46,718 nucleotides of DNA from an uncultured Clostridia bacterium (GCA_945788225.1 CALZLD010000001.1:1-46718); one strand, 5' to 3'; shown: positions 1-28,727, counted from the first letter of the stretch. Translations and numbers: made by a program. Notes: generated by a model not told the origin, from the sequence alone.

Positions 1-363
1 AGGTTCTACTCCGAGATTTTCAAGAGCAAAGGCAACATCTTCTTCAACTATCGTTGCGACTATCTGATTATCGGGGTTCTGAAAAACCATTCCGACGCGC
101 TGTCTTATATCAAAGAGCCTTTCATCATCGGCGGCATTTATTCCGTCAACGAATATTTCGCCCTTGTTCGCTGTTAATATAGCGTTGAAATGCTTGGCGA
201 TAGTTGACTTTCCCGAACCATTATGTCCGAGAACGGCAACAAATTCTCCTCTTTTTATATCAAGCGAAACGCCCTTTAAAACCTCTTTTATAGGTGCATC
301 CTCTTCAAAGCTTTCACTCTGATAGTGGAACCATACATTTTTTGCTTCGATTATATTATCCAT
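1..363 (-). CDS. ecfA: ABC-type ATPase, probably an energy-coupling factor (ECF) transporter ATPase; partial, C-terminus lies outside the window
   Basis: Minus-strand reading frame running off the window edge. Translation starts MDNIIEAKNVWFHYQSES and contains Walker A GHNGSGKST, then VGMVFQNPDNQ. The ATG at 361-363 is preceded by GGAAGTG. The ABC ATPase call is secure; the ECF assignment rests on N-terminal resemblance only. Confidence 0.7.
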   Translation of the reverse strand, partial: MDNIIEAKNVWFHYQSESFEEDAPIKEVLKGVSLDIKRGEFVAVLGHNGSGKSTIAKHFNAILTANKGEIFVDGINAADDERLFDIRQRVGMVFQNPDNQIVATIVEEDVAFALENLGVEP

Positions 364-387
364 TTTACACTTCCGATTAATTTGTAT

Positions 388-1257: not shown

Positions 1258-1267
1258 TTTACGCTCC

Positions 1268-2623: not shown

Positions 2624-2642
2624 TGATTTTTCTCCTTTCAGT

Positions 2643-3701
2643 TTACAAAAGACTTTGCTGTCCGTCGTCGGACGAGCCTGAACCTTCCTTTTTATATCCA
2701 AGGTGTTCATATGCAAGAGCAGTGGCGCATCTTCCGCGCGGAGTTCTTGAAATAAAGCCAAGCTGCATAAGATAAGGCTCGCAGACATCTTCAAGAGTGA
2801 CTGACTCTTCGCCTATTGCGGAGGCAAGGGTTTCAAGTCCGACAGGTCCGCCGTTATAGCCTTTGATAATCATTTCAAGCATACGCTTATCGAGAGTGTC
2901 AAGCCCCAATGAGTCTATTTCAAGTCTGTCAAGAGCGACAGAAGCTATATCCTTTGTGATAATCCCGTTGCCCATAACCTCGGCAAAGTCGCGGACTCTT
3001 TTTAAAAGTCGGTTTGCAATACGGGGTGTTCCTCTTGAACGCTTTGCTATTTCCATAGCGCCGTCCTTTTCGCAGGAAATACCGAGAACCCCACTACTGC
3101 GCATAACTATTTCACAAAGCTGTTCGTGGGTATACATTTCAAGGCGCATTACCATTCCGAAGCGGTCGCGGAGAGGTGAAGTAAGCTGACCTGCTCTTGT
3201 TGTTGCTCCGACAAGAGTAAATTTAGGCAAGTCAATTCTTATCGACTGAGCAGAAGGCCCTTTACCGATAATGATATCAAGGGCGCAGTCTTCAAGCGCG
3301 GGATAGAGTATTTCTTCAATAGCTCTTGACAGACGGTGAATTTCGTCAATGAAAAGAACATCATTCTCGGAAAGGTTTGTAAGAAGCGCCGCAAGGTCGC
3401 CCGGCTTTTCTATTGCAGGTCCTGAGGTTATTCTGATATTAACACCCATCTCGTGAGCGATAATTGCCGAGAGAGTTGTCTTTCCGAGTCCGGGAGGGCC
3501 GTAAAGAAGAACATGGTCGAGGGGTTCTCCTCTTTGCTTTGCGGCTTCTATAAAAATCTTCAGATTTTCTTTTACCTTATCCTGACCTATGTATTCGTCA
3601 AGAGTTTTGGGGCGCAATGAAAAATCTATGTCGGTATCTTCCCTTGTGGCTTCGGGAGTAACCATTCTGTCCTCAAAATTGATTTCTCCTGCTTCGAGCA
3701 T
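2643..3701 (-). CDS. ruvB: Holliday junction branch migration DNA helicase RuvB
   Basis: 352 aa. Has the AAA+ Walker [19 protein letters not shown] and an RuvB-type C-terminal winged helix. ATG with an AAGGAAGTGA RBS. Confidence 0.96.
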
Positions 3702-3719
3702 TGTTTCACTTCCTTAAAT

Positions 3720-4328
3720 TTACTTCTTATTTCTTCCGATAAGCTGTAATGATTTTCTAATAAGTTCGGGAGCGGAAAGAGCCGGGTCAAGCGTTGAAAC
3801 AACCGACGCCGCTTCTGTCTGAGAGTATCCGAGAACGACAAGTGCGGAAATTGCTTCGCTCACTGCTCCGCCCTGATTTGCTGTTGTAAATTCGGCAACG
3901 GACGCACTTTCTGCTGATAACTGTTCCTTGGCGATTTTATCTTTAAGTTCAAGAATAATTCTCTGAGCAAGCTTTGGACCTACTCCCTTTGTTTTTGTGA
4001 ACGCCTTTGCGTCGCCCGTTGCAACGGAAAGAGCGAATTTTTCAGGTGTGGTATCCGAAAGAATTGCAAGCGCAGTACGAGGTCCCGCTCCCGAAACGGA
4101 AAGGAGCATTTTAAAGCAGGCAAGCTCGTTCTGTGAATAAAAGCCGAAAAGCTCGACAGCGTCTTCTCTGACATGAAGATAAGTAAAAAGTTTTACCGTA
4201 TCTCCTATTGCTCCTATCTGTGAAAGTGTTGAAAAGGTCGTACGGCAGGCATATCCCACTCCCGAAGCTTCAATAACCGCAAGGTTCTGTTCTGTGTGGA
4301 CAAGCTCGCCCTTTATGCTGTAAATCAT
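3720..4328 (-). CDS. ruvA: Holliday junction DNA helicase subunit RuvA
   Basis: 202 aa. N-terminus MIYSIKGELV, and a helix-hairpin-helix region LLSVSGAGPRTALAIL..KGVGPKLAQRIILEL typical of RuvA. Sits immediately upstream of ruvB. Confidence 0.95.
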   Translation of the reverse strand: MIYSIKGELVHTEQNLAVIEASGVGYACRTTFSTLSQIGAIGDTVKLFTYLHVREDAVELFGFYSQNELACFKMLLSVSGAGPRTALAILSDTTPEKFALSVATGDAKAFTKTKGVGPKLAQRIILELKDKIAKEQLSAESASVAEFTTANQGGAVSEAISALVVLGYSQTEAASVVSTLDPALSAPELIRKSLQLIGRNKK

Positions 4329-4334
4329 AATATT

Positions 4335-4835
4335 CTATTCTCCTATTTTGTGATATATACGCTGTGAGTTCATTGTGTGTCCGTGACATATTGCGATGGC
4401 AAGCGCGTCGGCAGTATCGTCGGGCTTTGGAACAGACGCAAGACAGAGGATTTTTCTTGTCATTTCCATTACCTGCTTTTTTTCGGCTCTGCCGTATCCG
4501 ACAACAGACTGCTTGACCTGCAACGGAGTATATTCCGTAATGGGAACTGCCCGCTGAGCCGCCGCAAGAATTGTAACTCCCCTTGCCTGAGCAACATCGA
4601 TACCTGTTTTCTGGTTGGTGTTGAAATAAAGCTTTTCAATAGCCATTGTATCGGGGCGGTATGTATCGAGAATTGTGCACATATCGCGGTAAATATCGGA
4701 TAATCTTTCATAAAAAGGGGTGTGAGCCTCGGTGGTGATTGCTCCGAAAGCTATTGTTTTAAAGCTTCTTCCATCATATTCAAGAACGCCGTATCCTATT
4801 ATGGCATATCCGGGGTCTATTCCGAGAATACGCAA
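4335..4835 (-). CDS. ruvC: Crossover junction endodeoxyribonuclease RuvC
   Basis: The conserved RuvC N-terminus (M)RILGIDPGYAIIGYGV begins at the TTG at 4833-4835, 6 nt after a GGGGGTG RBS. The 243-aa track ORF extends into the AT-rich promoter region and is probably an artefact. The start codon choice is the uncertain part. Confidence 0.88.
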   Translation of the reverse strand: MRILGIDPGYAIIGYGVLEYDGRSFKTIAFGAITTEAHTPFYERLSDIYRDMCTILDTYRPDTMAIEKLYFNTNQKTGIDVAQARGVTILAAAQRAVPITEYTPLQVKQSVVGYGRAEKKQVMEMTRKILCLASVPKPDDTADALAIAICHGHTMNSQRIYHKIGE

Positions 4836-4980
4836 AGCAACACCCCCATAAAAGTAAAATTTATCCAGCATATACAAACATCTGCATATTAACGATTTAT
4901 TATACCATATTATTGTGATAATATCAAGTTTTTGGCGGAAGAATTTTTTTGTCTTTAAATACAGATTTACCCAAAAATTA

Positions 4981-5009
4981 TTGCAATAGCTGAAAAAAGA
5001 ATGTATAAT
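4981..5009 (+). promoter_or_regulatory. Sigma-A type promoter for ispDF
   Basis: TTGCAA (4981-4986), 17-nt spacer, then TGTATAAT extended -10 (TATAAT at 5004-5009). Lies about 30 nt upstream of the ispD ATG. Confidence 0.6.
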
Positions 5010-5733: not shown

Positions 5734-6209
5734 TGAGAATAGGTCACGGATACGATGTTCACAAACTAGTTGAAAACAGAAAACTGATTTTGGGCGGAGT
5801 GGAAATTCCGTATGAGAAAGGGCTTCTCGGACATTCGGACGCGGATGTTCTTGTTCACGCTGTAATGGACAGTATTCTGGGTGCTCTTGCGCTTGGTGAT
5901 ATAGGCATGCATTTCCCTGATAACGATGAAAATTACAAAGACGCGAACAGCATTGAACTTCTTAAAAAAGTTTGCGGAATAATGAGCGAAAAGGGATATA
6001 AGCTCGGCAATATCGACACAACGATAATATGTCAGGAGCCAAAGCTTGCGCCTTTTATTGAAAAAATGCGTGACAATATTGCAAAGGCTTTGAATTGTGA
6101 TGTAGGTTCTGTAAGCGTAAAGGCCACTACCGAGGAAAAGCTTGGATTTACAGGAAGTAAAGAAGGCATTTCAGCCCACGCTGTTTGTCTTTTGGAGGAA
6201 TTAAAATGA
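5733..6209 (+). CDS. ispF: 2-C-methyl-D-erythritol 2,4-cyclodiphosphate synthase
   Basis: 158 aa. [12 protein letters not shown] and [11 protein letters not shown] zinc-ligand motifs characteristic of IspF. Confidence 0.95.
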
Positions 6210-6760
6210 CGGAAAGAGAAAAAATGCTCTCAGGAGAGTTATATATGCCCGAAGACGAAGAGCTTTCGGAGCTAAGGCTCAAAGCAAGGCTTTTATGTGA
6301 AAAATTCAATAAAACTTCTGTTACGGAGCTTGACGAAAGAACTGCGATATTAAAAGAGCTATTCGGAAATGTCGGCGGAAGAATTTATATTGAGCCTGAT
6401 TTTCATTGCGATTATGGCTGTAACATATATGTCGGAGATAATTTTTATGCAAACTTCGGATGCGTTATACTCGATGTTGCGGAAGTGAAAATCGGCAGAA
6501 ACTGTTTTCTTGCCCCCGGAGTTGTTATTGCGACGGCAACTCATCCGAAAAGAGCAAGTGAACGCTATAACGGTCTTGAACTTGCAAAGCCTATCACAAT
6601 AGGCGATGATTGCTGGATAGGCGCAAGGGCTGTTATTAATCCCGGAGTAACGCTCGGAAACGGCGTTGTTGTCGCCTCGGGAGCGGTTGTCACAAAGAAT
6701 TTCGGGGATAATGTGGTCATAGGCGGTGTTCCCGCAAAATTAATTTCCGAGATAGATTGA
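6206..6760 (+). CDS. maa: Sugar O-acetyltransferase (maltose/galactoside acetyltransferase family, left-handed beta-helix)
   Basis: The N-terminal [27 protein letters not shown] is the typical Mac/Maa N-terminal domain, followed by hexapeptide repeats ([31 protein letters not shown]). Start chosen at the ATG at 6206, behind a GGAGGA RBS, rather than the track start at 6185. Confidence 0.85.
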
Positions 6761-6781
6761 TTTTATTATTGGAGGATTTTT

Positions 6782-7378
6782 ATGAAAAGGCTTTCGCTCG
6801 TTTACCCTGTTATCACATACCGTTCAAAGCTTAAAAGAAATTTAGGCTTTGTTGTCACGGAAGACTGGATAGTAGGTCAGCTTTATACCGATAACACGGG
6901 AAATAAATATCTTCTTGCCGCTCCACCCGAAAACGAAGAGCACCAGCGGTTTTATGATGTTTCAAATCTAAGACAGGAAACAATAGGAGTAATTTCTCCA
7001 TTTAAAACAAATACCGATAAGCCTATCTTTGACGGTGATATTATATCTGTCGTTGCGTATAACGGAGTCGTGAACGATACCCCTCAGAATGTTATGGGAA
7101 TTGACGGAGAAAGCGTTATGGTTGAAAAAGAGCGTCAGATCTCTATTCCCGAAAATGCCGAGATAACCTTTTCTGCAGAGGGAATAGTAAGAAATTACAA
7201 CGGAAATTTCTTTTTTGAATATGCGGATTTTGAAAAGGTTTCGCTGGGAACGGCTACTATTCCTCTTTATCAATTCTATACGCCCGATTTTGTCCCCATC
7301 GAAAATCATATTATTGACATTATCGGAAATATTTATGATAACCCACAGCTTTCACAGCAGATTTTGTATTATACATAA
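6782..7378 (+). CDS. YopX-like domain protein (phage-associated family), function unknown
   Basis: 198 aa. C-terminal IIGNIYDNPQL closely matches the IGNIhxNPELL signature ending YopX-family proteins. Also has the upstream DGDII beta-barrel motif. GGAGGA RBS. Confidence 0.55.
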   Translation: MKRLSLVYPVITYRSKLKRNLGFVVTEDWIVGQLYTDNTGNKYLLAAPPENEEHQRFYDVSNLRQETIGVISPFKTNTDKPIFDGDIISVVAYNGVVNDTPQNVMGIDGESVMVEKERQISIPENAEITFSAEGIVRNYNGNFFFEYADFEKVSLGTATIPLYQFYTPDFVPIENHIIDIIGNIYDNPQLSQQILYYT

Positions 7379-7418: not shown

Positions 7419-9515
7419 TCATTTTCTGTTGTCGCTGTCAATCGGCTTTGGAACGGGAGCCGACGCTCCGCTCTTTGCGGATGAGGCAAATCCGAAATTC
7501 GATTTGCCGTGCTTCTTTACGCCGTACATTGCTTCGTCCGCCGCATTGAGCAATTCTTCGCAGTTCTTGCCGTTTTCGTTGAAGTGGGCAATACCTATAG
7601 AACAGTTAATAGAAAGATGCTCGCCCGTTGATTCGGATGTGAAGCCCTTGGACATTGTCTTTATAAGGTCGCCCGCAACATCAGCGGGAGCAACATTCGG
7701 AACATTGATACAAGCAACAAATTCGTCGCCTCCGAAACGACCTGCAAAGCCTCTCTCAAATGTGAGTTCTTTCAAGGTGTCGGCTGTAAATTTGAGTACT
7801 TCGTCGCCGCAGGCGTGGCCAAAATCATCGTTGAAGTGCTTGAAATCGTCAAGGTCGATAAACATAATAAAGCTGTTATATTTGCGGACGGTCGAGAGCT
7901 CAAACTCATTGGCAAGTGCCTTGATAAAGCTTTCTCTGTTATAAACCTGAGTCAGAGCGTCAAAGTTTGCTCTCTGGATAAGACGCATTTCATCGCGCTT
8001 TTCACGGTCAATGTCAACTATGACGCCGATAAGCTTGGTGGGAACATCGTCACGGTCAAAGAACTTTGTGGCACGGATGAGCACCCACGCAAAGTCGCCG
8101 TAGATATTCTGGAATCGGTATTCGCCCTGAAGATAGTTGGAGCCTGTGCCCAAAATTCTGTCAAGGTCGGCAAAATATCTTTCACGGTCGTCCTTATGTA
8201 TTCTCAGCTTATAGAAAAAGCTGTCCTGAATATCGTCCGATTTAGGTCTGAAACTGAACTTTTTGTTGAAATTATTTGAAACATAGACAGTCTGTTTTGA
8301 GAAGTTAATCTCAAACACAATATTGTTTGTCATTTCAACAATGGTACGGTAACGCTGTTCGCTTTCAAAAACATCGTCAAACATCGCGTTGAACGCTCTG
8401 CCTATCTGACCGTATTCATCATAGGAATCAACATCAAATCTTGCCTTCTGGTCTCCTCTGCTCTTTTTGGTGAGAACATTGACAATATTGAGAATAGGCT
8501 TTGAAAAATAAATCACAAAGAACACGATAATTGCAGTTTCAAGAACAAAGCATACAACCGTCGCAATCTTGAAAGCGGTCGTGTTGATGTTGAGTTCTTT
8601 GGCAATATCATTTCTGCCGACTATTGTAACAAGCTTCCAGTTTGTTCCGCAGATGCCTGTAATATGAACAAATTCGGTTGTGCGGTCTATATCTGTTTTT
8701 TCAAATATTTCATTGTCGGATAAATCTGCTCTGGAAAAAATATCCGTATATACAGAGAAGTTGTTATCTTTTTTATACTCGCTTGCCTTTCCGCTTGAAA
8801 GCGAAAGAATGTTTTGATAAGCGTCGGTTATTCCGCCTGTTGACGAACCTATAACCTTTGTATCAAAGAGATTTTTCTGTATCTGGGTTGTTGTGCAAAG
8901 CTGAACGAATGTTCCGACATTATTTTCATCGTATGTAATATTCCTGCAAACAAGGAATGCCGCGGTGGTTGTTCCGCCAACCTTGATATTGATGAAATCA
9001 GATACTCCCCCGCTGTTTGACGCAAGCGAAATTCTGTCGGGATCATCGGAGATAACTGACAGATATTCATCGCACCCCTCGGACATTACGATGACATTGC
9101 CCTCAGCGTCAAGAATAACGGCAAGCTCGACATTCGGATTGCTTTGTTGATATGAATTGACCGAATTCTGAACATAAGCTTTGATATCGTCAAGTCGGCT
9201 GTAATCGGGATGATAAGGTCTGTCATAAGGCGACATTGACATAATCGCAGTGTAAGAGGAAATATCTTTATTTATGGCTATATTTCTGCCGTGGTTCTGT
9301 AATTCATTGACAAAAGAGCCGACCATCTCCGCTCTTGCCGAAGCTGAACTGCATATAACCTGCATTGCTGCGGAATCGACGGCATCCGAAGATTCTTTAA
9401 AAGCAACTATATTGAAAATCGCCATTGCAATCAAAGCAATAAGCGCCATTGCAAGCGCAAATTTTGTTGTAATTTTCAGAATGTCGCCCCCTTTTTCGGA
9501 AATATCAATATACAC
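7419..9515 (-). CDS. Sensor diguanylate cyclase (TM, large extracytoplasmic Cache-like region, TM, HAMP, PAS, GGDEF)
   Basis: 698 aa. Two hydrophobic segments bracket about 280 aa. The C-terminal GGDEF domain has an intact RFGGDEF active site and YNRESF. The start is uncertain: the track start is a GTG without an RBS, and an AAAGGGGG RBS sits just inside the ORF. Confidence 0.85.
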   Translation of the reverse strand: MYIDISEKGGDILKITTKFALAMALIALIAMAIFNIVAFKESSDAVDSAAMQVICSSASARAEMVGSFVNELQNHGRNIAINKDISSYTAIMSMSPYDRPYHPDYSRLDDIKAYVQNSVNSYQQSNPNVELAVILDAEGNVIVMSEGCDEYLSVISDDPDRISLASNSGGVSDFINIKVGGTTTAAFLVCRNITYDENNVGTFVQLCTTTQIQKNLFDTKVIGSSTGGITDAYQNILSLSSGKASEYKKDNNFSVYTDIFSRADLSDNEIFEKTDIDRTTEFVHITGICGTNWKLVTIVGRNDIAKELNINTTAFKIATVVCFVLETAIIVFFVIYFSKPILNIVNVLTKKSRGDQKARFDVDSYDEYGQIGRAFNAMFDDVFESEQRYRTIVEMTNNIVFEINFSKQTVYVSNNFNKKFSFRPKSDDIQDSFFYKLRIHKDDRERYFADLDRILGTGSNYLQGEYRFQNIYGDFAWVLIRATKFFDRDDVPTKLIGVIVDIDREKRDEMRLIQRANFDALTQVYNRESFIKALANEFELSTVRKYNSFIMFIDLDDFKHFNDDFGHACGDEVLKFTADTLKELTFERGFAGRFGGDEFVACINVPNVAPADVAGDLIKTMSKGFTSESTGEHLSINCSIGIAHFNENGKNCEELLNAADEAMYGVKKHGKSNFGFASSAKSGASAPVPKPIDSDNRK

Positions 9516-13897: not shown

Positions 13898-15760
13898 CTA
13901 TTTATAGTCGGGAGACTCCGCCGTTGCACGATACTCCGCAGCCTCTTTGAGCGTTGCGTTGAAATCGTCCTCGTCAAGCGGTTTACCGAGAAGATAACCC
14001 TGAACGCAGTCACAACCGCAATCGCGCAGGAAATTAAGCTGTTCTTCAACTTCTACTCCCTCTGCCACAACGAACAGATTCATATTATGCGCAAGAGAAA
14101 TTATCGAGCCGACAATTTCCTTTTCGGACTCGGCACGGTTGATGCCGTCAACAAAGGACTTATCAATCTTCAAGGTATCGATCGGGAGAGAGCGGAGATA
14201 ATGAAGCGACGAATAGCCTGTTCCGAAATCGTCAAGCGCTATGGATATTCCAAGTTCCTTTATCTTATTGAGAACTTCAACGGCGCTGTCGACGGACTTT
14301 ATGAAAACAGACTCAGTAATCTCTATTTCAAGATTTCTGCCGTAAACACCCGTTTCTTTCATAACGCTTTCAATAATATCGTAAAAATCGGGTTGCATAA
14401 GCTGAATTGTAGAAATATTGACGGAAAGAACTATATCATCAAGACCGTATGTATCCATAGCCGTGCGGAGCTTCCGACAAGCCTCACGGAAAATCCATGT
14501 GCCGAGCTCAATGATAAGACCTGTTTCCTCAGCCATAGGAATAAACTGTACGGGGCTGACAAGACCGAGTTCCTCTGAACGCCAGCGGACGAGAGCCTCA
14601 AAGCCGCGGAGCTTTTTGCCGTCGGGAGCGTGCTGGGGCTGGAACATAAGGTGAAATTCTTCTTTGTTAATACCTGCGACAAGGCTCGCCTCAAAGTCGA
14701 CCTTGCTCTGAATTTCTTCTTTCATCTCGTGGCTGAAAAATTCAACTCTGTTTCTTCCCTCGGACTTCGCTTTGTAAAGCGCCATATCGGCGCATTTAAG
14801 CAGTTCTGTTGAATCGCTTCCGTCTTTCGGATAAGCGGAAGCGCCGAAGCTTGCGTTAACCGATACCTCTTCATCCTCTATCTGAATCGGGGCGGAAATA
14901 GCTTTGCGGATTTCTTCGATATAATCAAGTATTTCAGCCTTTTCGATGTCACGCTGAATGAGAATTGCAAATTCGTCTCCGCTGAGTCTGCCGAACATAT
15001 CGTCGGAATCGAGTGTGGATGTTACACGCTGGGCAATTTTCTTTATTACAATATCGCCACGGTCGTGGCCTAAAATATCGTTGACTCTCTTGAAATTGTC
15101 AAGGTCGATGAACACAACGGTGAATTTCTTGTTCATCTTTGCTGAAAAGCTTATATGAAAGTCAAGTCTGTTGATTATCATTCTTCTGTTTGGAAGCTCG
15201 GTGAGTTCATCGAACAATGCCATGTGGTTGAGTCGTTCTTCGTTTTCTTTAATTACTCTTGACGACTCGATAAGCTGTTCGTTGATTTTTCTGACTTCCT
15301 CGTAGGCTTCCTCGGCTTCCTCGGCAAGCTTGATAAGTTCCTCGCGCTGTTCCTTTGCCTCTCTCATTGAATGATAGAGCTTTCTCATAATAACAAAAAG
15401 GAATGTAATGGAGATAATTGTTCCTATCGGGATAACTACACCCATCAACGAAAAAGGAACATCGGGAATAAGCATTGACAGAAAAACATTTGCTATGGAA
15501 AGAACGCTTAGAATAATAGCGGTAACATATCCCCTCTTATAATACCTGGCTGTAAGGACTATGGCGACAGCAACCTGCAACTGTGCTATTATGCTTTTAG
15601 CAAACATAACAGTAGTGAATGCCTGAACTACCATCATGAAAACATAAAGAAGGCACCAGAATACTATGAAGGCAATATCCTTTTTATTGCGTTCTTCAAT
15701 GACCTTTTCATCAGCCTCTTCGCCGACTATTTCATCAACGCAATCGGAAATATTCCGCAT
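13898..15760 (-). CDS. Membrane-bound GGDEF-EAL protein (c-di-GMP cyclase/phosphodiesterase; GGDEF motif is SGDEF)
   Basis: 620 aa. Has 4-5 N-terminal hydrophobic helices, a coiled-coil linker and a GGDEF domain with RLSGDEFAIL. The EAL domain has EALVRW, DDFGTGYSSL and KIDKSF motifs. ATG with an AAAGGGGTGA RBS. Confidence 0.88.
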   Translation of the reverse strand: MRNISDCVDEIVGEEADEKVIEERNKKDIAFIVFWCLLYVFMMVVQAFTTVMFAKSIIAQLQVAVAIVLTARYYKRGYVTAIILSVLSIANVFLSMLIPDVPFSLMGVVIPIGTIISITFLFVIMRKLYHSMREAKEQREELIKLAEEAEEAYEEVRKINEQLIESSRVIKENEERLNHMALFDELTELPNRRMIINRLDFHISFSAKMNKKFTVVFIDLDNFKRVNDILGHDRGDIVIKKIAQRVTSTLDSDDMFGRLSGDEFAILIQRDIEKAEILDYIEEIRKAISAPIQIEDEEVSVNASFGASAYPKDGSDSTELLKCADMALYKAKSEGRNRVEFFSHEMKEEIQSKVDFEASLVAGINKEEFHLMFQPQHAPDGKKLRGFEALVRWRSEELGLVSPVQFIPMAEETGLIIELGTWIFREACRKLRTAMDTYGLDDIVLSVNISTIQLMQPDFYDIIESVMKETGVYGRNLEIEITESVFIKSVDSAVEVLNKIKELGISIALDDFGTGYSSLHYLRSLPIDTLKIDKSFVDGINRAESEKEIVGSIISLAHNMNLFVVAEGVEVEEQLNFLRDCGCDCVQGYLLGKPLDEDDFNATLKEAAEYRATAESPDYK

Positions 15761-15939
15761 ATTCTGTCACCCCTTTCTTAGTTGTCTTCAAACTGCACGA
15801 ATTTATTGTAATTTTATCACCAAAGTTAATTTCAAGTCAACACTTTAACAATTAGTTTACAAATATTGCAAAAAGTCTTACCTTTTCAACATAACGGTCA
15901 AAATAAATTTGTAAAATATGCTATAACACAAAAATATAT

Positions 15940-15968
15940 TTGACAATTTTATAGTTATTTGTTATAAT
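15940..15968 (+). promoter_or_regulatory. Consensus sigma-A promoter for the dynamin-like operon
   Basis: TTGACA (15940-15945), 17-nt spacer, TGTTATAAT (TATAAT at 15963-15968, extended -10 TG). Lies about 60 nt upstream of the first ATG. Confidence 0.7.
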
Positions 15969-16029
15969 ATCAATATATGTATGCTCATTTCGCTGAATCG
16001 AAAAATACATTCAGTATCAGGAGGCTATT

Positions 16030-18111
16030 ATGAACCAGACCTTTGATTACGGAAGCTATTCCGCCTATAAAGAAACGGTGGAAACCCTTAAGGAAAGACT
16101 TACTCTTCTTATGCAGTATTGCGACTCTCTGGGACTTGAACGAACCTCGAAGTCTATTGCGGCAACGATAGAAAAAGTTGCGCAGGAGCATTTTGAGGTT
16201 GCTATTGTCGGCGAGTTCAAAAGAGGAAAATCGACCCTTATCAACGCGATGCTCGGACAGGAAGTTCTTCCTGCCGATGTTCTTCCCGCTACGGCGACAT
16301 TGAACAGAGTTACATACAGTGAAACTCCTTATGTTACAATTGAATACAAAAGCGGAGAAAAAGAAAGCGTTGATATTGCAGAGCTTGCAAATTATGTTAC
16401 AAAGCTTTCATTTGAATCGGAACAGAAAGCTGAGACCATAAAAGAAGCTACGGTTTATTACGACACCGACTTCTGCAAAAACAATGTCGATATTATCGAC
16501 ACTCCGGGTCTCAACGATGACGAGCAGATGACAAATGTTACATTGTCAATACTGCCTGAAATTGACGCCGCTGTTTTTGTAATCAGCGCAAATTCTCCTT
16601 TTTCCCAGTTTGAAAAGGAATTTCTTGAAAAGAAGATGCTGACGAGCGACCTCGGAAGAATAATTTTCGCAGTAAACTGCTTCGGCACCTTTGCGCGCGA
16701 GGACGAGGAACGCATCGTTGAAACTGTCCGCAAGCGTATCGGACAGTATGTTATGGACAAAGCCAAGGCGGTTATGGGCGAGGATTCTAAGGAATTTGCA
16801 GTCTATAAGCGCAAGATAGGTCTTCCCAAGGTTATAGGAGTATATGCAAAGAAAGCCCTCGTTGCAAAACAGACGGGCGACGCCGCTATGCTTGAAGAAA
16901 GTAACTTCCCCGTTTTCGAGCATACGCTTGAATCTCTGCTCACAAAGGACAGAGGTTCTATCACCTTACAGATGCTTGCAAACAAGATTATCAGTTCAGG
17001 TTCGGAGCTTATCAACTCTACTGTTCTTCGCGAAAACGCACTTCTTATGGAAACAGACGAGTTCCTTGAAAAATATCAGGCTGCCATAGATGAAATCGAG
17101 GATATCCGAACCAAGAAGCGTGAAGAATTTGTAAGAATCAACGAGGCCGCAAACAAGGCATTCACCGACTTGCAGCCTATCCTTGACGATTACTGGGTTC
17201 AGATTGAAGACACCGCAATGCAGGTTATCGACGAATTCCCGATGACATCGGAAGACCTCAAGCGTGACAGAATGAAGCTTGTCAACGCAAAACTTACCGA
17301 AAAGATAAGAGAAAGCATCGAAAACAAGGCACAGCTCATCTGTGAACAGATTCAGAATGAGATTAACATTGCCCTTTCGGACGAAGCGGAGCGTCTGCAA
17401 TCCTTCGAGGACGAATTCTTTGCGTCGGTTAACCGAATTCAAGAGATGTTCTCTGTTCCCGAGCGCCCTGTTAATCAGGTTATCGGCTCGGCAATAGGCT
17501 CTATCATAAACTTTGGCGTCGGCGGAATATTCATCGGCTTCCGCGAGGCAGGCGTCAAGGGTGCGCTCTTAGGCGGAGTTACAGGCTTTGCAGGATTCTA
17601 TGCAACATTCTTTGCGGCTATTTATCTTGCCGGAGCGCTCGGAATTGCAACAGCGGGACCTGTTACTCTCTGCGTTATCGCTATAGCAGGTATAGCAGGA
17701 ACATTCTCGGGCAAGTTCTCGGTTGACAAACTGCTCGTTCAGGAAAGAATAGAAAAGTACAAGGCTGATTTCAAGTCGACCGTTAAAAAGCAGTTCAAGG
17801 AAATGAAAATTAATTCGGACTTCTCGGAAACTGTTCGTCAGCAGGTATTCAATTCGTTTGAAGGACTCAAAGCAAAGCTTGAAAGCGAAACCGAGGTCAT
17901 CCTTGAAGATACACAGAAAACCCTTGACAACCTCAACAAGCTCAAGGCTGAACAGAAAGAACTTTCGGATTCCGAGAGAGAATGGCTCAGAAGCGTTGCA
18001 GAGTATGTCGGCGGTCTTCTTGCCGAGGCTTACGGTCTTTATCAGACCATTACAAAAGTCGAGGAAGAAACCGTTGCGGGAACTGATGAAGAAGAAGCTC
18101 AGACTGTATAA
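16030..18111 (+). CDS. Dynamin-family GTPase (bacterial dynamin-like protein) with an internal glycine-rich double transmembrane hairpin
   Basis: 693 aa. P-loop GEFKRGKSTLINAMLG (16210-), G3 DTPGLND (16498-), and a long helical stalk. Hydrophobic Gly-rich segment GSAIGSIINFGVGGIFIGF...GALLGGVTGFAGFYATFFAAIYLAGALGIATAGPVTLCVIAIAGIAG (about 17478-17720). Coiled-coil C-terminus with an acidic tail. AGGAGG RBS. Confidence 0.85.
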   Translation: MNQTFDYGSYSAYKETVETLKERLTLLMQYCDSLGLERTSKSIAATIEKVAQEHFEVAIVGEFKRGKSTLINAMLGQEVLPADVLPATATLNRVTYSETPYVTIEYKSGEKESVDIAELANYVTKLSFESEQKAETIKEATVYYDTDFCKNNVDIIDTPGLNDDEQMTNVTLSILPEIDAAVFVISANSPFSQFEKEFLEKKMLTSDLGRIIFAVNCFGTFAREDEERIVETVRKRIGQYVMDKAKAVMGEDSKEFAVYKRKIGLPKVIGVYAKKALVAKQTGDAAMLEESNFPVFEHTLESLLTKDRGSITLQMLANKIISSGSELINSTVLRENALLMETDEFLEKYQAAIDEIEDIRTKKREEFVRINEAANKAFTDLQPILDDYWVQIEDTAMQVIDEFPMTSEDLKRDRMKLVNAKLTEKIRESIENKAQLICEQIQNEINIALSDEAERLQSFEDEFFASVNRIQEMFSVPERPVNQVIGSAIGSIINFGVGGIFIGFREAGVKGALLGGVTGFAGFYATFFAAIYLAGALGIATAGPVTLCVIAIAGIAGTFSGKFSVDKLLVQERIEKYKADFKSTVKKQFKEMKINSDFSETVRQQVFNSFEGLKAKLESETEVILEDTQKTLDNLNKLKAEQKELSDSEREWLRSVAEYVGGLLAEAYGLYQTITKVEEETVAGTDEEEAQTV

Positions 18112-18151
18112 CTTATGTTCTGTTTAAATAACCATTAAGGAGGCCGACTCG

Positions 18152-19138
18152 ATGAGTTCAGCTATTGAATATGAAAATCCCTTGCTTAAAATAGACACAA
18201 GCTTTCAGTCCTATCTTATTCTTCATTCACTTACTCCGAAGATTACATCGGAAAGCGTTAATTACGCCTTTCAGACAGAATGTCTCTCAAGGCAGTCTCT
18301 GAATAGCATCACGGGCTGGAATAAGCTTGTAAAATCAATCACCTCAACCGATATGCCCTCAGTTATGAAAAGATATTTTGACGGAGCTGTGACGGTTGAC
18401 GGTTGGAATAACACAAAAATATACGACATTGCAAAAACCTGTGCGGAAAGGTTAAAGGCGCGTCTGCCTGCCATTATGATAAACACAAAAATCCAGACGC
18501 CTGAACTTGTTGCGGTTTTTGCAGAGGGTATTGAACCCTGCATAATAATGACAAAATCACTTGTCGGAATGTGCAGTGAAGAAGAACTTGTATTTGTTCT
18601 TGCAACGGGTATTTCGAGAACGCACAACAACCACTGCATCTATAATTTTATCGCCCCGTACATAGGCTTTGCCGACGGTAACGAAAGACAGAAAAACTTT
18701 ACGCGTATCGAAAGCATACCGAAGCAGCTCAATTATATTATGACGGATTGGGCGCGCTTTGCAGATGTAACAAACGACCGCGCTGTTATGATTTGTCTTG
18801 ACGAACCCGAAAGGTTCCCGTTTATTCTCAAATCGCTGTCCGATAAGAAAATACCGCTCTTTATGAATTATGACAATGATGAGAAGTTCAAACCCGAGAG
18901 CGTTATTGACGACTATAACAAAACTGTAAAATTCACGGCGGCGAGGGACCTTAATATTCCGCCCGAAACAACAAGGGCAGAAAGAAGAATACTGTGCGCG
19001 CTTGAATTTTTAAACTGCGAAATATATTACAACTGCCGCAGCGACATCAGTTCAGAAGGCCGCGGACATATTGTAAACAAGCCGATGATAGACCTTCGTT
19101 GTGACATTATTATCGGCGCTTCCAAGGGGGTTGAGTAA
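18152..19138 (+). CDS. Hypothetical protein resembling an M48-family metallopeptidase with the HExxH and third-ligand motifs replaced (predicted pseudo-peptidase)
   Basis: 328 aa with a TAAGGAGG RBS. The segment PELVAVFAEGIEPCIIMTKSLVGMCSEEELVFVLATGISRTHNNH follows the M48 pattern (lnAFa.G..p.Ivvt.gL...l..eEl.fVLaHElgHi.n.H), but HELGH is TGISR. The downstream WARFADVTNDRA matches the E..ADr region with the Glu replaced by Ala. This is motif-level recognition only. Confidence 0.45.
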   Translation: MSSAIEYENPLLKIDTSFQSYLILHSLTPKITSESVNYAFQTECLSRQSLNSITGWNKLVKSITSTDMPSVMKRYFDGAVTVDGWNNTKIYDIAKTCAERLKARLPAIMINTKIQTPELVAVFAEGIEPCIIMTKSLVGMCSEEELVFVLATGISRTHNNHCIYNFIAPYIGFADGNERQKNFTRIESIPKQLNYIMTDWARFADVTNDRAVMICLDEPERFPFILKSLSDKKIPLFMNYDNDEKFKPESVIDDYNKTVKFTAARDLNIPPETTRAERRILCALEFLNCEIYYNCRSDISSEGRGHIVNKPMIDLRCDIIIGASKGVE

Positions 19139-19139
19139 T

Positions 19140-20912
19140 ATGGATAACGAAAAGATAACAAGTCAGTCCGCGCTCAATCTCGACAATGCGTTAAAATGTA
19201 TCGAATTTGTTCAGAACAGCTATCAGAGCCTTATCAACGACAAGGAACTCTGTGAGATTTTGGGCGATGAATTCTCTGCCAGAATGAAAGAGTGGGACAG
19301 CGTTATAACAAAGCGCCGCAACGAACCTTTTTCTCTTGTAATACTCGGAGATTTCAAGCGCGGAAAAAGTACGATAATTAACGCAATTTTAGGAAAGCAG
19401 CTTGCTCCCGTCAACGCCGCGCCCGAAACCTTTACAATCAATACGATTTCTTACGGCGAAAAGCCATCGGTAACGGCAATTCTTAAAAACGGGATTAAAA
19501 AGGAACTTACTATAAACGACCTTGTGCGTGACCGTCTTGAACAGATAATGCAGACTCTTCCCTCTCCTATTGATTATGTGGATGTGAGGGACAATGCTGA
19601 AATTCTGAAAGAGGTAAGGATAGTCGATACCCCCGGTCTTTCGGATATGAACGACCTTGATCAGCAGGTTCAGGATTATCTTATCAACGCCGACGCCGTT
19701 ATTTATGTAGCGTCTGCCCTGCTTCCGTTTTCCGAATCGGAGCAGATGTTCCTTGCAACGCATGTTGCACCGCAGAAATTCGGCAAGATATATGTTCTTG
19801 TCAATATGATTGACGCGCTCAATTCAAGAGAGGACATTGACAAAATACTCACGAGAGTAGCAAACTGCTGTCAGCAGATTGTTCCGAACGCTGTTGTTTA
19901 CGGTATCAGCGGTATCGACGAATTCAAGAGAAAGACAGACGCTCCGAGGGCCGACCTCAAAGGTTTTCAGGAGTATTATGAAACGGAATTCTTCAAGTTT
20001 GAGCGTTCTCTGCGCCGTGATATTATTACGCAGAAGGACTATCTGAGAGTTCAGCGTGTTCTCACCATGCAGGAAATAATGCTTGAAGATACCGCCGCGA
20101 GAGTTGATATGATATCCGAAGTTTCTGCTCTTGACAAGCAAAAGCTTGATACTCTTATGGAGGGTTTTCAGCAGGAAGGTGCAAATCTTAATGCAGCTAT
20201 CGAGGCAAACAGACCTAAGCTTCTTTTAAGCATTGCAGAGATGAAGCAGGAAGCTGAACGCTGGATGTATGAATTCTTCTCAAAGCTGCGTGAAGATATT
20301 GTGGCTTGCAGAAACGAAGTTACCGCAGAAGATGTTGAAGCGCATTTTCACTCCTATCTTATGGATAAAGTCGGCGAAGCTTACCGCAAATGCATCGAGG
20401 CTCACCAGGCGAGAACCGACGCTCTTATCGAAAGAATGAGCAGAGACCTTGCCAAAAAGCTGGGCATTGGCAATCTTGCCGTAAACGCCGCAAGCGGCGG
20501 AAATGTCAGCGACTATATGCGCGAAGTAAACGAGCAGGTAGCAAAGTCGGTAAAGAATGTTACGGGCAAGGGTTCGGGAACATTCCCCTCGGCTACAATT
20601 TCGTCTTTCAAGCTTATTTTAAGAACAAAGAAGCGTTCAGACATTATTGATGTTACGCTTGAAAAGTTTGACGAGATAAGAAACAGCACTGTCAAGGACC
20701 TTTCGGTTGCCTATGCAACTCTTGAAGAAAAAGCGTTAAAGCGTTTTGACAATCTTTATGAGACTCAGCTCAATATGGGCAAGGACGCTATAAATCAGAC
20801 CAAGGAAATCCTTGACAAGACCGATAATGAAAAGATGTCGAGTGTTTTTGAAAAAACAAGAACGGTTCTTGATAATGCAAGAAACGCTCTCAATGAAACT
20901 GCTTTTGTTTAA
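19140..20912 (+). CDS. Dynamin-family GTPase (bacterial dynamin-like protein), soluble partner
   Basis: 590 aa from the ATG at 19140, 1 nt after the preceding stop and behind an AGGGGG RBS. P-loop GDFKRGKSTIINAILG, G3 DTPGLSD, G4-like VNMID, and a long helical C-terminal half. No hydrophobic segment. The track ORF start at 19101 overlaps the previous gene and is less likely. Confidence 0.85.
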   Translation: MDNEKITSQSALNLDNALKCIEFVQNSYQSLINDKELCEILGDEFSARMKEWDSVITKRRNEPFSLVILGDFKRGKSTIINAILGKQLAPVNAAPETFTINTISYGEKPSVTAILKNGIKKELTINDLVRDRLEQIMQTLPSPIDYVDVRDNAEILKEVRIVDTPGLSDMNDLDQQVQDYLINADAVIYVASALLPFSESEQMFLATHVAPQKFGKIYVLVNMIDALNSREDIDKILTRVANCCQQIVPNAVVYGISGIDEFKRKTDAPRADLKGFQEYYETEFFKFERSLRRDIITQKDYLRVQRVLTMQEIMLEDTAARVDMISEVSALDKQKLDTLMEGFQQEGANLNAAIEANRPKLLLSIAEMKQEAERWMYEFFSKLREDIVACRNEVTAEDVEAHFHSYLMDKVGEAYRKCIEAHQARTDALIERMSRDLAKKLGIGNLAVNAASGGNVSDYMREVNEQVAKSVKNVTGKGSGTFPSATISSFKLILRTKKRSDIIDVTLEKFDEIRNSTVKDLSVAYATLEEKALKRFDNLYETQLNMGKDAINQTKEILDKTDNEKMSSVFEKTRTVLDNARNALNETAFV

Positions 20913-20920
20913 TAATATGA

Positions 20921-20960
20921 AAACAAGCCTGAGAAGACTGCAATCTTCTCGGGCTTGTTT
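20921..20960. terminator. Strong bidirectional terminator
   Basis: AAACAAGCCTGAGAAGA-ctgcaa-TCTTCTCGGGCTTGTTT: about a 16-bp stem with A/T-rich flanks. Sits between the convergent dynamin operon and the GNAT gene. Confidence 0.9.
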
Positions 20961-21520
20961 TATATTGTCCATTCTCCGAATATGACATTAGGCTGATTTG
21001 TGCTATGTTCTCCGATAATCTTTTCCATCCATATCATATCGTACCATTTATTGAATTTATAGCCGCACTTATGAAATGTTCCTACAAGCTTAAACCCCAG
21101 TTTCTGATGAAAAAGCATACTGTCATTTGTCAGATATTCATCTGCTTCTTGTATATATGCAATGCAAGCATTCAGGTTAAGCACGCCCATTTTGCATAAC
21201 GACTTTTCAAGAATGTCATAAAGCGCTGTTCCAACGCCTGAATGTCGTTTGTCTTTTCTGACATATATTGTTGTCTCAACAGACCAATCATAAGCGGCTC
21301 TCCCCTTAAATGCTCCCGCATAGGCATAACCCAGAATTTTGCCGCTGTTATCAACTGCTTTTATGTAAGGATATTTAGCTGATATTTTTCTTATCCGTTC
21401 TGCAAACTCCTCAACGGATGGCACTTCATATTCAAAAGAAATAGCGGTTTTTTCAACATAAGGAGCATAGATTTCCAACAGTTCTTTTGCGTCCCCTTCA
21501 TATACTCTTTCAATCTTCAA
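20960..21520 (-). CDS. GNAT family N-acetyltransferase (phosphinothricin/YncA-like)
   Basis: 186 aa. Early ISFEYEVPSVEEF motif and acetyl-CoA binding region RHSGVGTALYDILE typical of the PAT/YncA subgroup. TTG start 6 nt after a GGGGGAG RBS. Confidence 0.8.
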   Translation of the reverse strand: MKIERVYEGDAKELLEIYAPYVEKTAISFEYEVPSVEEFAERIRKISAKYPYIKAVDNSGKILGYAYAGAFKGRAAYDWSVETTIYVRKDKRHSGVGTALYDILEKSLCKMGVLNLNACIAYIQEADEYLTNDSMLFHQKLGFKLVGTFHKCGYKFNKWYDMIWMEKIIGEHSTNQPNVIFGEWTI

Positions 21521-21593
21521 TTAGTTCTCCCCCACATCCCGATTTATAAATCAGCTTATTATAACACCAAAGAATAATAAAGTCAATAAAACA

Positions 21594-21628
21594 AAAAGTC
21601 ACTTTTGAAATATCCAAAAGTGACTTTT
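21594..21628 (-). terminator. Terminator of mgtE
   Basis: AAAAGTCACTTTTG-aaatatc-CAAAAGTGACTTTT: perfect 14-bp stem, 8 nt past the mgtE stop. Confidence 0.85.
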
Positions 21629-21635
21629 ATTGTAA

Positions 21636-22991
21636 TTACAGATGTAAAAGAGCCGTTGCTGTTCCGAAATAAACAAGAAGCGAGAGAGCGTCGACCATTG
21701 TTGTAATGAATGGGCTCGCCATAACGGCAGGGTCAAAGCCGATTTTTTTTGCAAGCATAGGCAAAGAACAACCGATAACCTTTGCAACGATTACCGTAAT
21801 CACAAGAGTGAGACAAACGGTGAGAGAAATCATAATTCCCGCTCTGTCAAGCAGTATGAGCTTGACAAAATTTGCGGCGGCAAGAGTAAGTCCGCAAAGA
21901 ACGGCAACTCGGATTTCCTTCCATATAACTCTGAAAATATCCCTGAATTCAATCTCATTAAGGGAAAGTCCTCTTATGATGGTAACAGAAGCCTGACTAC
22001 CCGAATTTCCTCCCGTGTCCATAAGCATAGGAATAAATGCGGTCAATGCAACCTGAGCCGCCAATGCAGACTCAAACGATGTGATGATAAGTCCCGTAAA
22101 TGTCGCTGAAATCATAAGGAGCAGAAGCCACGGGATACGCTTTTTCCATGTTTCAAAAACGCCCGTTTTAAGATACGGCTTATCGGTAGGAGTGATAGCC
22201 GCCATCATTTCGATATCCTCGGTGGTTTCTTCTTCAATGACATCGATAGCGTCATCGAAGGTTACAATTCCGACAAGGCGTGTTTCCTTATCAACAACAG
22301 GCAAAGCCATAAAGTTGTACTTACTGAGCATCTGGGCAACTTCTTCCTGGTCGGTGTGAGTATCGACGCAGATGACATTTGTTTCCATAATGTTTTCTAC
22401 GACATCGTCATCGTCGGCAACAAGAAGGTCTTTAAGAGAAAGCATACCGATAAGAGTTCTGTTCTGGTCGGTAACATAGCAGGTGTAAATCGTTTCCTTA
22501 TCAACGCAGGTTCTTCTGATACGCTTTATCGCTTCTTCAACCGTCATCTGAGGTCTCAAACTCAGATACTCGGTAGTCATAATGCTTCCTGCGCTGTCCT
22601 CGGGATATTTGAGTATTTCGTTTATCATTTTGCGAAGCTCAGGGTCCGCCTGCTTCAAAACCCTGTTTACAACATTTGCGGGCATTTCTTCAACGATGTC
22701 AACCGCGTCGTCGACATAAAGCTCATCAACGACAGCTTTAAGCTCAGCGTCGCTGAATCCTTTAATCAGAAGTTCCTGCATATCGTCGTCCATTTCAACA
22801 AAAGCCTCTGCAGCAAGTTCCTTTGGCAGAAGTCTGAAAAGAAGCGGCAGTTTTTCCTCCTGAATATCGTTAAAAATTGCGGCAATATCGGCAGGGTTTA
22901 TCGTGTTCAAAATGTCGCGCAGAGAAGAATATTTCTTTTCTTCAAGCAAAATTTCAATGGTTGAAGAAAATCCCTTGAAATTATCCCCCAT
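21636..22991 (-). CDS. mgtE: Magnesium transporter MgtE
   Basis: About 451 aa. N-domain, tandem CBS domains and a C-terminal 5-TM MgtE channel with the PMLMDTGGNSGSQ motif. Start set at the second ATG (22991), 7 nt from AGGAGG. The first ATG (22997) is only 1 nt from the RBS. Confidence 0.93.
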   Translation of the reverse strand: MGDNFKGFSSTIEILLEEKKYSSLRDILNTINPADIAAIFNDIQEEKLPLLFRLLPKELAAEAFVEMDDDMQELLIKGFSDAELKAVVDELYVDDAVDIVEEMPANVVNRVLKQADPELRKMINEILKYPEDSAGSIMTTEYLSLRPQMTVEEAIKRIRRTCVDKETIYTCYVTDQNRTLIGMLSLKDLLVADDDDVVENIMETNVICVDTHTDQEEVAQMLSKYNFMALPVVDKETRLVGIVTFDDAIDVIEEETTEDIEMMAAITPTDKPYLKTGVFETWKKRIPWLLLLMISATFTGLIITSFESALAAQVALTAFIPMLMDTGGNSGSQASVTIIRGLSLNEIEFRDIFRVIWKEIRVAVLCGLTLAAANFVKLILLDRAGIMISLTVCLTLVITVIVAKVIGCSLPMLAKKIGFDPAVMASPFITTMVDALSLLVYFGTATALLHL

Positions 22992-28373: not shown

Positions 28374-28727
28374 TGGTGGAGGCGAGGGGAATTGAACCCC
28401 TGTCCGAAAACCTATCCATACAGTTTTCTCCGAGCGCAGTCTTTTGTTTAAAATTCCCTTGCCTTAACGCCAAAAGACAGGCTTCAAGGCTTGGTAGCCC
28501 TCAATACAGCCGCAGGGCGAGAGCGTTCCCTGCGGTCGTTCACCACTAATCGACGCCTGAGCCGCAGCCGTGGTACTCAGCGGTCAGACGCAGGCTGACT
28601 TAGGCAGCCTGAAGTTCGTAATTATTGTTAGCGTTTATATTTAAACACAATTATCGGTTTTATAGAGGTCCGATTCCTCTGCTCGCTTGCCATACTTCAA
28701 AATCCCCGTCGAAGCCTTTACGCCCCC
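28374..28727 (-). ncRNA. ssrA: tmRNA (SsrA), about 354 nt, encoded tag ANNNYELQAA
   Basis: The minus strand starts GGGGGCGTAAAGGCTTCGACGGGGATTTTGAAG and ends GGACAGGGGTTCAATTCCCCTCGCCTCCACCA (tRNA-Ala-like acceptor/T-arm). Internal tag frame GCT AAC AAT AAT TAC GAA CTT CAG GCT GCC TAA (28632-28600) follows TTTAAATATAAAC, as in Bacillus tmRNA. Confidence 0.95.

Follow-up and report, generated by a model that had tools for sequence, protein, structure and literature searches.

Bacterial dynamin-like proteins (DLPs) serve diverse roles, in membrane fusion, fission, vesicles, FtsZ stabilisation and cyclic di-GMP (c-di-GMP) control, and several of those described are paired or fused. The described partner of Nostoc BDLP1 is a tandem DLP, and no peptidase; the DLP1 and DLP2 genes of Campylobacter jejuni (Cj-DLP1/2) are paired in an operon together with one accessory gene, and their products form a heterotypic membrane-tethering complex. 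DynA and IniA/IniC, likewise paired or fused DLPs, have been implicated in repairing, dividing or fusing membranes when the envelope is stressed. Eleos is a two-gene system (or one with a split first gene) with defence genes adjacent in ~60% of cases, and in Escherichia coli the DLP RdcA (YjdA/CrfC) activates, together with RdcB, the membrane diguanylate cyclase DgcE. Among M48 peptidases, OMA1 has a dynamin-like GTPase, OPA1, as its substrate (PMC2806285). Here, we describe a locus at positions 15940-20960 of a 46,718-nt stretch of DNA from an uncultured Clostridia bacterium (GCA_945788225.1, CALZLD010000001.1:1-46718; this whole stretch is referred to as the window), in which a gene for a predicted M48-like pseudo-peptidase stands between two DLP genes. 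Sequence comparison identifies the locus as a derived form of a widespread DLP1-M48-DLP2 operon whose peptidase is normally intact, and not as an isolated oddity. This operon is apparently undescribed: full-text literature, with subscription-only papers excluded, yielded no paper linking bacterial DLPs to an M48/HtpX-like peptidase, and the trio has no counterpart among curated models or PADLOC candidates. An earlier reading of the window made from the sequence alone (the first-pass annotation) had likewise known of no described DLP pair with an M48-like partner, and neither a named system nor a paper has turned up since.

The three genes are tightly packed on one strand, with 40 nt between genes 1 and 2 and a single nucleotide between the stop codon of gene 2 and the start of gene 3, the latter gap being common to all close orthologues. 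Upstream lies a consensus promoter, the sole 12/12 match in a scan of 7 kb (15000-22000), and downstream a terminator hairpin with a minimum free energy of -31.2 kcal/mol (z = -10.1; equalled by 0 of 200 shuffles), the core stem of which was also picked up on the minus strand. Promoter, three packed same-strand genes and terminator make up one unit. Re-reading left the coordinates, lengths, common strand and both gaps of the first-pass annotation unchanged, and the promoter and bidirectional terminator that it had placed at either end were recovered at the same positions. An in-frame GTG at 19101, upstream of the ATG of gene 3, is an unlikely start. Rfam gave no match in the operon or its leader, and the GC content of the operon equals that of the rest of the window. 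The features of the unit are as follows, with RBS standing for ribosome-binding site.

15940..15968, + strand: sigma-70-type promoter, TTGACA-17 nt-TATAAT, with an extended -10 TG
16019..16024, + strand: RBS of gene 1, AGGAGG, from sequence reading
16030..18111, + strand: gene 1 (DLP1), 693 aa, predicted membrane-anchored BDLP/mitofusin-like GTPase
16210..16236, + strand: G1/P-loop of gene 1, GEFKRGKST, aa 61-69, >95% conserved across 74 orthologues
16498..16512, + strand: G3 of gene 1, DTPGL, from motif reading
16672..16689, + strand: degenerate G4 of gene 1, VNCFGT (Asp219 to Gly), where relatives have (N/T)xxD
17479..17718, + strand: Gly/Ala-rich hydrophobic hairpin/paddle of gene 1, aa 484-563, from Kyte-Doolittle hydropathy
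18137..18143, + strand: RBS of gene 2, AAGGAGG, from sequence reading
18152..19138, + strand: gene 2, 328 aa, predicted soluble M48-like pseudo-peptidase
18605..18619, + strand: degenerate HExxH of gene 2, T152-G-I-S-R156, aligned column for column with HECGH
18764..18766, + strand: Asp205 of gene 2, replacing the third zinc ligand Glu (ADVTNDRAV against AEVTCDRAG in the family)
19140..20912, + strand: gene 3 (DLP2), 590 aa from the ATG, predicted soluble dynamin-like GTPase
19347..19373, + strand: G1 of gene 3, GDFKRGKST, aa 70-78, from motif reading
19626..19640, + strand: G3 of gene 3, DTPGL, from motif reading
19800..19814, + strand: G4 of gene 3, VNMID, intact (conserved NMID)
20921..20960, both strands: intrinsic bidirectional terminator hairpin between gene 3 and a convergent GNAT gene, shared by the two

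Taken alone, gene 2 gave a sub-threshold match to Pfam M48 (E = 0.028) and further sub-threshold matches to HtpX and BlaR1, and a word-based search retrieved just five close clusters; an identical protein is recorded in a metagenome-assembled genome of the Oscillospiraceae. A profile built from the five clusters and searched against 1.84 billion representatives retrieved 208 of them, with HECGH-containing proteins scoring at 1e-36 to 1e-24. About a dozen of the closest relatives lack HExxH; nearly all others carry HECGH near residue 150, followed in active relatives by an AEVTCDRAG motif ~50 residues further on. When 43 family members were aligned, 36 passed the Pfam Peptidase_M48 model (PF01435; best E = 6.5e-28), and both HtpX (3cqb, 3.4e-9) and Ste24p were recovered at the sequence level with the active-family profile. 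The link between gene 2 and M48 is transitive, because the orthologue profile reaches HECGH proteins that are themselves Pfam M48; run against PDB sequences, the gene 2 profile returned nothing meaningful.

The predicted structure points the same way. An AlphaFold2 model based on the five close orthologues was unusable (pLDDT 39.5), and the model used here, a confident one, was computed from a 27-sequence alignment (pLDDT 82.3, pTM 0.81). In a fold search, its top PDB matches all belonged to the M48/M56 clan (BlaR1, BepA, the HtpX domain, ZMPSTE24 and Ste24), the HtpX domain being matched with a target TM-score of 0.70 at an rmsd of 1.9 Å. The first-pass annotation had read gene 2 as an M48 scaffold with its catalytic and zinc residues substituted and had proposed a structure model as a check; profile search, alignment and the best folds of the model all agree with that reading. 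At the level of sequence and predicted fold, we regard it as confirmed that gene 2 encodes a true M48 homologue of HtpX/Ste24-like fold that has kept neither the catalytic Glu, the general base, which is Gly here, nor any of the three zinc ligands, which are Thr, Arg and Asp. The HP...R motif found downstream in active members is lost as well. Neither a hydrophobic nor a transmembrane segment was found in gene 2, and the family as a whole appears soluble, at ~320 aa. Against an 87%-identical orthologue, gene 2 shows a pN of 0.076 and a pS of 0.651 (dN/dS ~0.05), values that indicate strong purifying selection. Active and degenerate members also share fifteen invariant positions away from the metal site, among them those of an N-terminal NPxxxI..F..Y motif.

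To survey the genomic setting of this family, one genome per species was scanned with active-family patterns and the best 80 loci were fetched from 518 genomes; synteny was examined in these 80 genome loci and in 80 loci fetched from metagenomes. Active relatives of gene 2 (HECGH) occur in at least 518 species genomes from many phyla, and the 80 genome loci span Cyanobacteriota (Nostoc, Fischerella, Hyella and others), Acidobacteriota, Chloroflexota, Pseudomonadota, Bacillota, Myxococcota and Planctomycetota. At 72 of these 80 loci, a gene-1-type DLP, the M48 gene and a gene-3-type DLP are adjacent in this order on the same strand, the upstream DLPs matching gene 1 in phmmer searches down to 1e-197; four of the remaining eight run into a contig boundary, and the others are mostly artefacts of ORF calling. 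The same order recurs in nearly all 80 metagenome loci where contigs allow. Many modules are larger. Three DLPs are present at 57 of the 80 genome loci and four DLPs at four more, the additional ones lying mostly upstream on the same strand and mostly lacking strong hydrophobicity, and a zinc-ribbon protein is encoded between the third DLP and DLP1 at 28 of the 80, Clostridia included.

Zinc-ribbon genes of this kind are seen, for example, at L031:4462-4869, L052:4112-4885, L050:1599-2141 and L067:4011-4610, and at ~24 further loci, such that the active module of many Clostridia consists of five genes (third DLP, zinc-ribbon protein, DLP1, M48 and DLP2). Some of these zinc-ribbon neighbours have a C-terminal hydrophobic region, and one gave a weak CD225/IFITM-like match. 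At two loci from Pyrinomonadales and Pyrinomonadaceae (L020:3451-6855 and L025:3688-6951), DLP1 measures ~1100 aa and carries an N-terminal extension of ~450 aa without a Pfam match.

One protein of the family, the 906-aa P0138 from a JGI metagenome, combines Peptidase_M48 (aa 79-263, HECGH intact) with a following Dynamin_N and DLP helical domain in one polypeptide, which points to a direct partnership of M48 and DLP2. Plasmid-borne soluble M48 relatives are distant (~29% identity) and have no DLP neighbours, so that linkage to DLPs is specific to the gene 2 subfamily. In the broader family, soluble M48 proteins are fused to a Ser/Thr kinase plus double zinc ribbon, to a zinc ribbon plus TPR, or to TerB (P0131, P0093 and P0057). 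Judged by their domains, such fusions to zinc ribbon, TerB, TPR and kinase fit stress- or membrane-associated roles, and those with zinc ribbons echo the zinc-ribbon neighbour of the DLP operons.

Within this family, the window belongs to a group that appears to have lost catalysis. In a neighbour-joining tree, the close relatives of gene 2 all fall into a single clade, the first His of the motif being R, C, S, A or T there. The subclade of the window (TGISR, TAISR, TEISR) is the most derived part of it, and the third-ligand position in the close relatives is D, E or N; deeper members retain the catalytic Glu and the second His (RECGH, CECGH). A separate His-to-Arg group from JGI and Logan metagenomes (P0033 and P0157-P0160) carries RECGH with the third-ligand Glu intact, and its independence, along with sporadic single losses elsewhere, indicates that catalysis was given up more than once. 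At P0033 itself, DLP genes lie on both sides, followed by a gene for a PrsW-family protease.

Loss of the site did not break up the operon. Loci L001, L002, L083/84, L085-87 and L088 keep the three-gene order wherever the sequence suffices. A metagenome scan gave 42 degenerate loci, many of them from human gut, and 38 active ones; ~40 of the degenerate loci keep the three genes, and over 40 independent loci have the full set of three undisrupted ORFs, at gene 2 identities down to ~33%. The window itself has the three-gene core and lacks the intact HECGH...E site, the third DLP and the zinc-ribbon gene; no adjacent third DLP or zinc-ribbon gene was found at the degenerate-clade loci in general. 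Nor do these loci have a conserved neighbour beyond the three genes, the GGDEF-EAL, GNAT, MgtE and GlnA genes of the window being unshared. The three genes are therefore syntenic among unrelated flanks, and since they travel together while the flanks change, they behave as the autonomous unit that the first-pass annotation had proposed.

Both DLPs of the clade are altered alongside the peptidase. The G4 of DLP1 reads NCFGT in all 37 readable degenerate metagenome loci as well as in the window, L001, L083 and L088; the corresponding Asp is retained in 72/72 genome orthologues from active modules and at 25 of 27 active metagenome loci. In DLP2, an SWTxxD motif and the hydrophobic paddle are lost: the median maximum Kyte-Doolittle value is 0.88 in the degenerate clade versus 1.37 in active modules, and none of 39 degenerate-clade DLP2 proteins reaches 1.6 as compared to 22 of 97 active ones. 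The predicted pseudo-peptidase is, by these comparisons, part of a lineage-specific package that includes loss of the G4 Asp of gene 1.

Gene 1 itself matches Pfam Dynamin_N with E = 3.4e-31, is covered by Dynamin-like_hel_bact over aa 280-643 and aligns at full length with Nostoc BDLP1 (2j68; residues 32-667, E = 2.4e-26), which is the closest solved homologue of genes 1 and 3 alike, followed by Cj-DLP1/2, the mitofusins and IniA. Its G2, a conserved Thr in PATATLNR, is intact. At G4, the guanine-specificity Asp of the (N/T)KxD consensus is replaced by Gly, a degeneration overlooked in the first-pass annotation; this puts the nucleotide specificity of gene 1 in question, while its family membership stands by homology. 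Between aa 484 and 563, Kyte-Doolittle averages over 19-residue windows rise to 2.08, the sole such region among the three proteins, and a segment of at least 1.6 is present in 135 of 135 DLPs encoded upstream of an M48-like gene. The first-pass annotation had assigned a double-transmembrane hairpin to gene 1 alone: the exclusive hydrophobic segment stands, and the exact double-pass arrangement is plausible rather than proven, the region having by appearance two or three stretches. On this homology, gene 1 is assigned to the BDLP/mitofusin-type GTPases, and its product carries a hydrophobic hairpin.

Gene 3 matches Dynamin_N with E = 1.3e-22 and BDLP1 with E = 1.8e-17, and its G1, G2 (conserved PETFT), G3 and G4 are all intact. 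No hydrophobic segment was detected in it by Kyte-Doolittle analysis, and its stalk is assigned from length and alignment alone. Homology and hydropathy together identify gene 3 as a second, soluble DLP with canonical G motifs. The dynamin signatures that had been read from both genes at the outset, as well as the solubility ascribed to gene 3, are borne out by these searches.

How might the three products work together? We give roughly even chances to a model, built on the comparisons above, in which the three products assemble into a heteromeric machine that remodels membranes and whose M48-like subunit plays no catalytic part. DLP1 would sit in the cytoplasmic membrane. The M48-like protein, a stoichiometric component, would be an adaptor or clamp without catalytic activity, using the remains of its substrate groove and the conserved motifs at its N and C termini to hold a segment of a partner, likeliest DLP2 or DLP1. 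The clamp would control heterotypic DLP1-DLP2 assembly on the membrane, with DLP2 running a bona fide GTPase cycle and DLP1 binding nucleotide with low specificity or in a regulatory capacity; in ancestral and in active modules, the equivalent contact would lead to proteolysis of a DLP or of membrane proteins that have been damaged. Hints of such a complex come from the 1-nt gap between genes 2 and 3 in all close orthologues, from the repeated loss of catalysis with the gene retained, and from the P0138 fusion; an adaptor role for gene 2 is plausible on this basis. By analogy with DynA, IniA/IniC and Cj-DLP1/2, the most likely physiological role of the system would be housekeeping membrane maintenance or repair, and not dedicated phage defence. 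A more far-reaching version, which we hold to be rather improbable although worth stating, takes OMA1-OPA1 as its analogy: DLP1-M48-DLP2 would constitute a prokaryotic protease-dynamin axis, in which a soluble HtpX/Ste24-like peptidase binds a DLP pair and regulates it proteolytically when active, whereas the clade of the window kept the interaction after catalysis was lost and turned DLP1 into a G4-less, possibly non-GTP-specific, regulatory partner.

Several observations weigh against the three-subunit machine. Given the diversity of DLP functions in bacteria, membrane repair is only the modal guess. P0138 is a singleton from one metagenome contig, and a lost stop codon or a sequencing or assembly error could have produced it. 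The fold-search E-values of the gene 2 model are weak (0.07-0.5). At two loci, L151 and L165, the peptidase is active (HECGH...E) yet the G4 of DLP1 reads NRLGQ, with Asp changed to Gly, so that G4 loss and peptidase loss are separable and the former arose there independently. As the degenerate clade is monophyletic, the dead peptidase, the G4 Asp-to-Gly change and the loss of the DLP2 paddle amount to one evolutionary event, and statistically correlated evolution of peptidase and G4 loss was rejected for this reason. Finally, N159, H161 and D209-R210-A211 are still invariant in gene 2, which makes an unconventional activity conceivable.

The first-pass annotation had hypothesised a membrane-damage or phage-sensing system with the dead peptidase as its sensor or adaptor. 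As an anti-phage system comparable to Eleos or DynA, the locus would use its DLP pair to detect or counteract phage structures or the membrane damage that phages cause, with the peptidase as sensor. Protection against phage is documented for dynamin pairs and for DynA, the latter being an example of a housekeeping DLP with effects on phage outcomes, and PADLOC matched LeoA/LeoBC models (~560-600 positions) to both DLPs, gene 1 scoring 70/60 bits and gene 3 45/40 bits. Yet these scores reflect generic DLP-level similarity; PADLOC found nothing for gene 2, and the check that had been suggested for the operon produced weak Leo matches and no named system that fits. The window places the operon among genes for a membrane GGDEF-EAL protein, a type III glutamine synthetase, GH44, GNAT, MgtE and ABC exporters, the unrelated housekeeping and signalling company already remarked upon at first reading, and the flanks of the window and of orthologous loci, taken together, are core genes (GlnA, GH44, GGDEF-EAL, GNAT, MgtE, UvrAB, RF-1 and sporulation genes); Eleos, in contrast, has two genes and frequent defence neighbours. 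Among 138 flanking proteins from 65 loci, a sample and not an enrichment test, the zinc ribbon was the only recurrent family and defence-model matches were sporadic, with a single GajA (1/138). A degenerate copy does lie on a virome scaffold, L088 (MT836781.1, an UNVERIFIED 'Bacteriophage sp.' from human faeces), where the module at 175-4984 (DLP of 685 aa with VNCFGT, M48-like protein of 325 aa with CECGR, DLP of 579 aa) is found beside a tyrosine-recombinase-type integrase and a MazF/PemK-like toxin (5807-7228 and 8199-8678); this scaffold probably derives from a bacterial genome, at the border of an integrated element, and not from a phage. A search of 2.9 million viral contigs in IMG/VR revealed no relatives, and E. 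coli has no copy. A mobile or viral origin was rejected on the basis of this null result, the bacterial look of L088, the native GC content and the plasmid copies, which are only distant M48 relatives without DLP neighbours. The phylum-spanning spread and conserved gene order look cellular, too. Overall, the context favours a cellular membrane function, and for anti-phage defence, to which we assign a small share of the probability, the context gives no support.

That gene 2 is still an enzyme is a less probable option again. Its product might be a hydrolase relying on another metal or mechanism, with a non-canonical site formed by N159, H161, D205, D209 and R210 or by cysteines, and the invariance of residues around the former active site in active and degenerate members, the strong selection on the gene and the retention of Glu and the second His in the deeper degenerate clade (RECGH, CECGH) would all suit it. 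The substitutions of general base, ligands and HP...R described above speak against such a site, we know of no M48 member that functions without its HExxH and third-ligand residues, and the variability of the replacements among close relatives (TGISR, TAISR, TEISR; D/E/N) fits relaxed constraint. Improbable, too, is a role of the DLP module as signalling partner of the divergent membrane GGDEF-EAL protein in the style of RdcA/RdcB and DgcE. The gene in question (620 aa, 13898-15760, minus strand) starts ~270 nt upstream of gene 1, and besides the precedent of RdcA/RdcB acting on DgcE there is a 2026 mBio paper whose title points in this direction; against this, a GGDEF/EAL homologue lies nearby at 0/80 metagenome and 2/80 genome loci, L001, L083 and L088 have other neighbours, RdcA is a soluble protein that has no paired DLP, and RdcB does not resemble M48. 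Least probable of all is a decaying relic without current function: several canonical residues were lost together, and the third DLP and zinc-ribbon genes are missing, but the ORFs are intact in over 40 loci at a dN/dS of ~0.05, and the operon has a perfect consensus promoter, strong RBSs and a strong terminator. The three-subunit machine with a non-catalytic M48-like clamp remains the reading we prefer.

Beyond the operon, the window contains a second strong bidirectional terminator-like hairpin with a 14-16 bp stem between the GNAT and MgtE genes (21594-21628) and an 11/12 promoter match on the minus strand (21586-21558). A tmRNA (transfer-messenger RNA) gene at 28374-28727 (minus strand; tag peptide ANNNYELQAA) and two tRNA-Leu genes at 39363-39449 (plus strand) and 40138-40224 (minus strand), with anticodons TAA and CAA, are ordinary features.

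How paired bacterial DLPs are regulated is largely an open question. An M48-fold gene between DLP genes in hundreds of species from many phyla suggests that a third component is conserved, one that has received no attention in work on BDLP1, Cj-DLP1/2, DynA, IniA/C and LeoABC. Human-gut metagenomes are rich in the degenerate clade, and comparing this clade with active modules could separate scaffold from catalytic functions; the pairing of a canonical GTPase with a G4-less partner, in turn, bears on the division of labour in heterotypic DLP pairs. The resemblance to OMA1-OPA1 makes protease control of dynamin membrane dynamics testable in bacteria, in cultured cyanobacterial and clostridial carriers, and if a protease-dynamin axis were true, the clade of the window would be a natural experiment in which an interaction has outlived catalysis.

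Compared with the systems described to date, gene 1 is most like BDLP1 (PDB 2j68/2j69/2w6d), with which it appears to share N-terminal helices, G domain, helical neck/trunk and membrane paddle, and from which it differs in a longer Gly/Ala-rich hydrophobic hairpin and the missing G4 Asp. Nostoc BDLP1 was rejected as an orthologue: the M48-flanking DLPs of Nostoc are paralogues of it that match 2j68 at 1e-17 to 1e-33. The Cj-DLP pair (PDB 5owv) aligns with genes 1 and 3 at 2e-13 and 1.5e-8 over the G domains alone, and its accessory gene encodes an HcpA-like beta-lactamase that follows the pair, whereas here an M48-fold gene lies between the DLPs. With Eleos/LeoABC, the locus has in common two dynamin-like proteins in an operon and weak LeoA/LeoBC matches; Eleos lacks a peptidase-fold component and is enriched in defence islands, while the window, with three genes and housekeeping flanks, shows neither a two-gene operon nor strong model matches nor co-localisation with defence genes. 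DynA consists of two DLP units fused into ~1190 aa where the window has two separate genes, and its model (NF052648) gave 56 and 46 bits for the two DLPs against a cut-off of 1600. The similarity of gene 1 to IniA is weak (2.6e-8), IniB is not M48-like, and DynA and the Ini proteins have no hairpin of the gene 1 kind. RdcA resembles the locus as a DLP co-encoded with an accessory protein of ~300 aa and with a GGDEF-EAL partner, the window having a GGDEF-EAL neighbour; it is, however, a single soluble DLP with similarity confined to the P-loop region (2.5e-7), and RdcB has no known relation to the M48 fold. The M48 proteins HtpX, Ste24, BepA and OMA1 share fold and family with gene 2, and its active relatives carry their HExxH and downstream Glu; the gene 2 family is distinguished from them as soluble and ~320 aa long, and gene 2 by replacement of its catalytic Glu and zinc ligands. 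In BepA, a chaperone-like function persists when the protease is dead. OMA1-OPA1 may serve as a functional parallel for the pairing of M48 and dynamin, with no homology claimed and convergence possible. Paired bacterial DLP operons with an accessory gene were already known; what this locus and its relatives appear to add is a conserved M48-fold gene between the two DLP genes.

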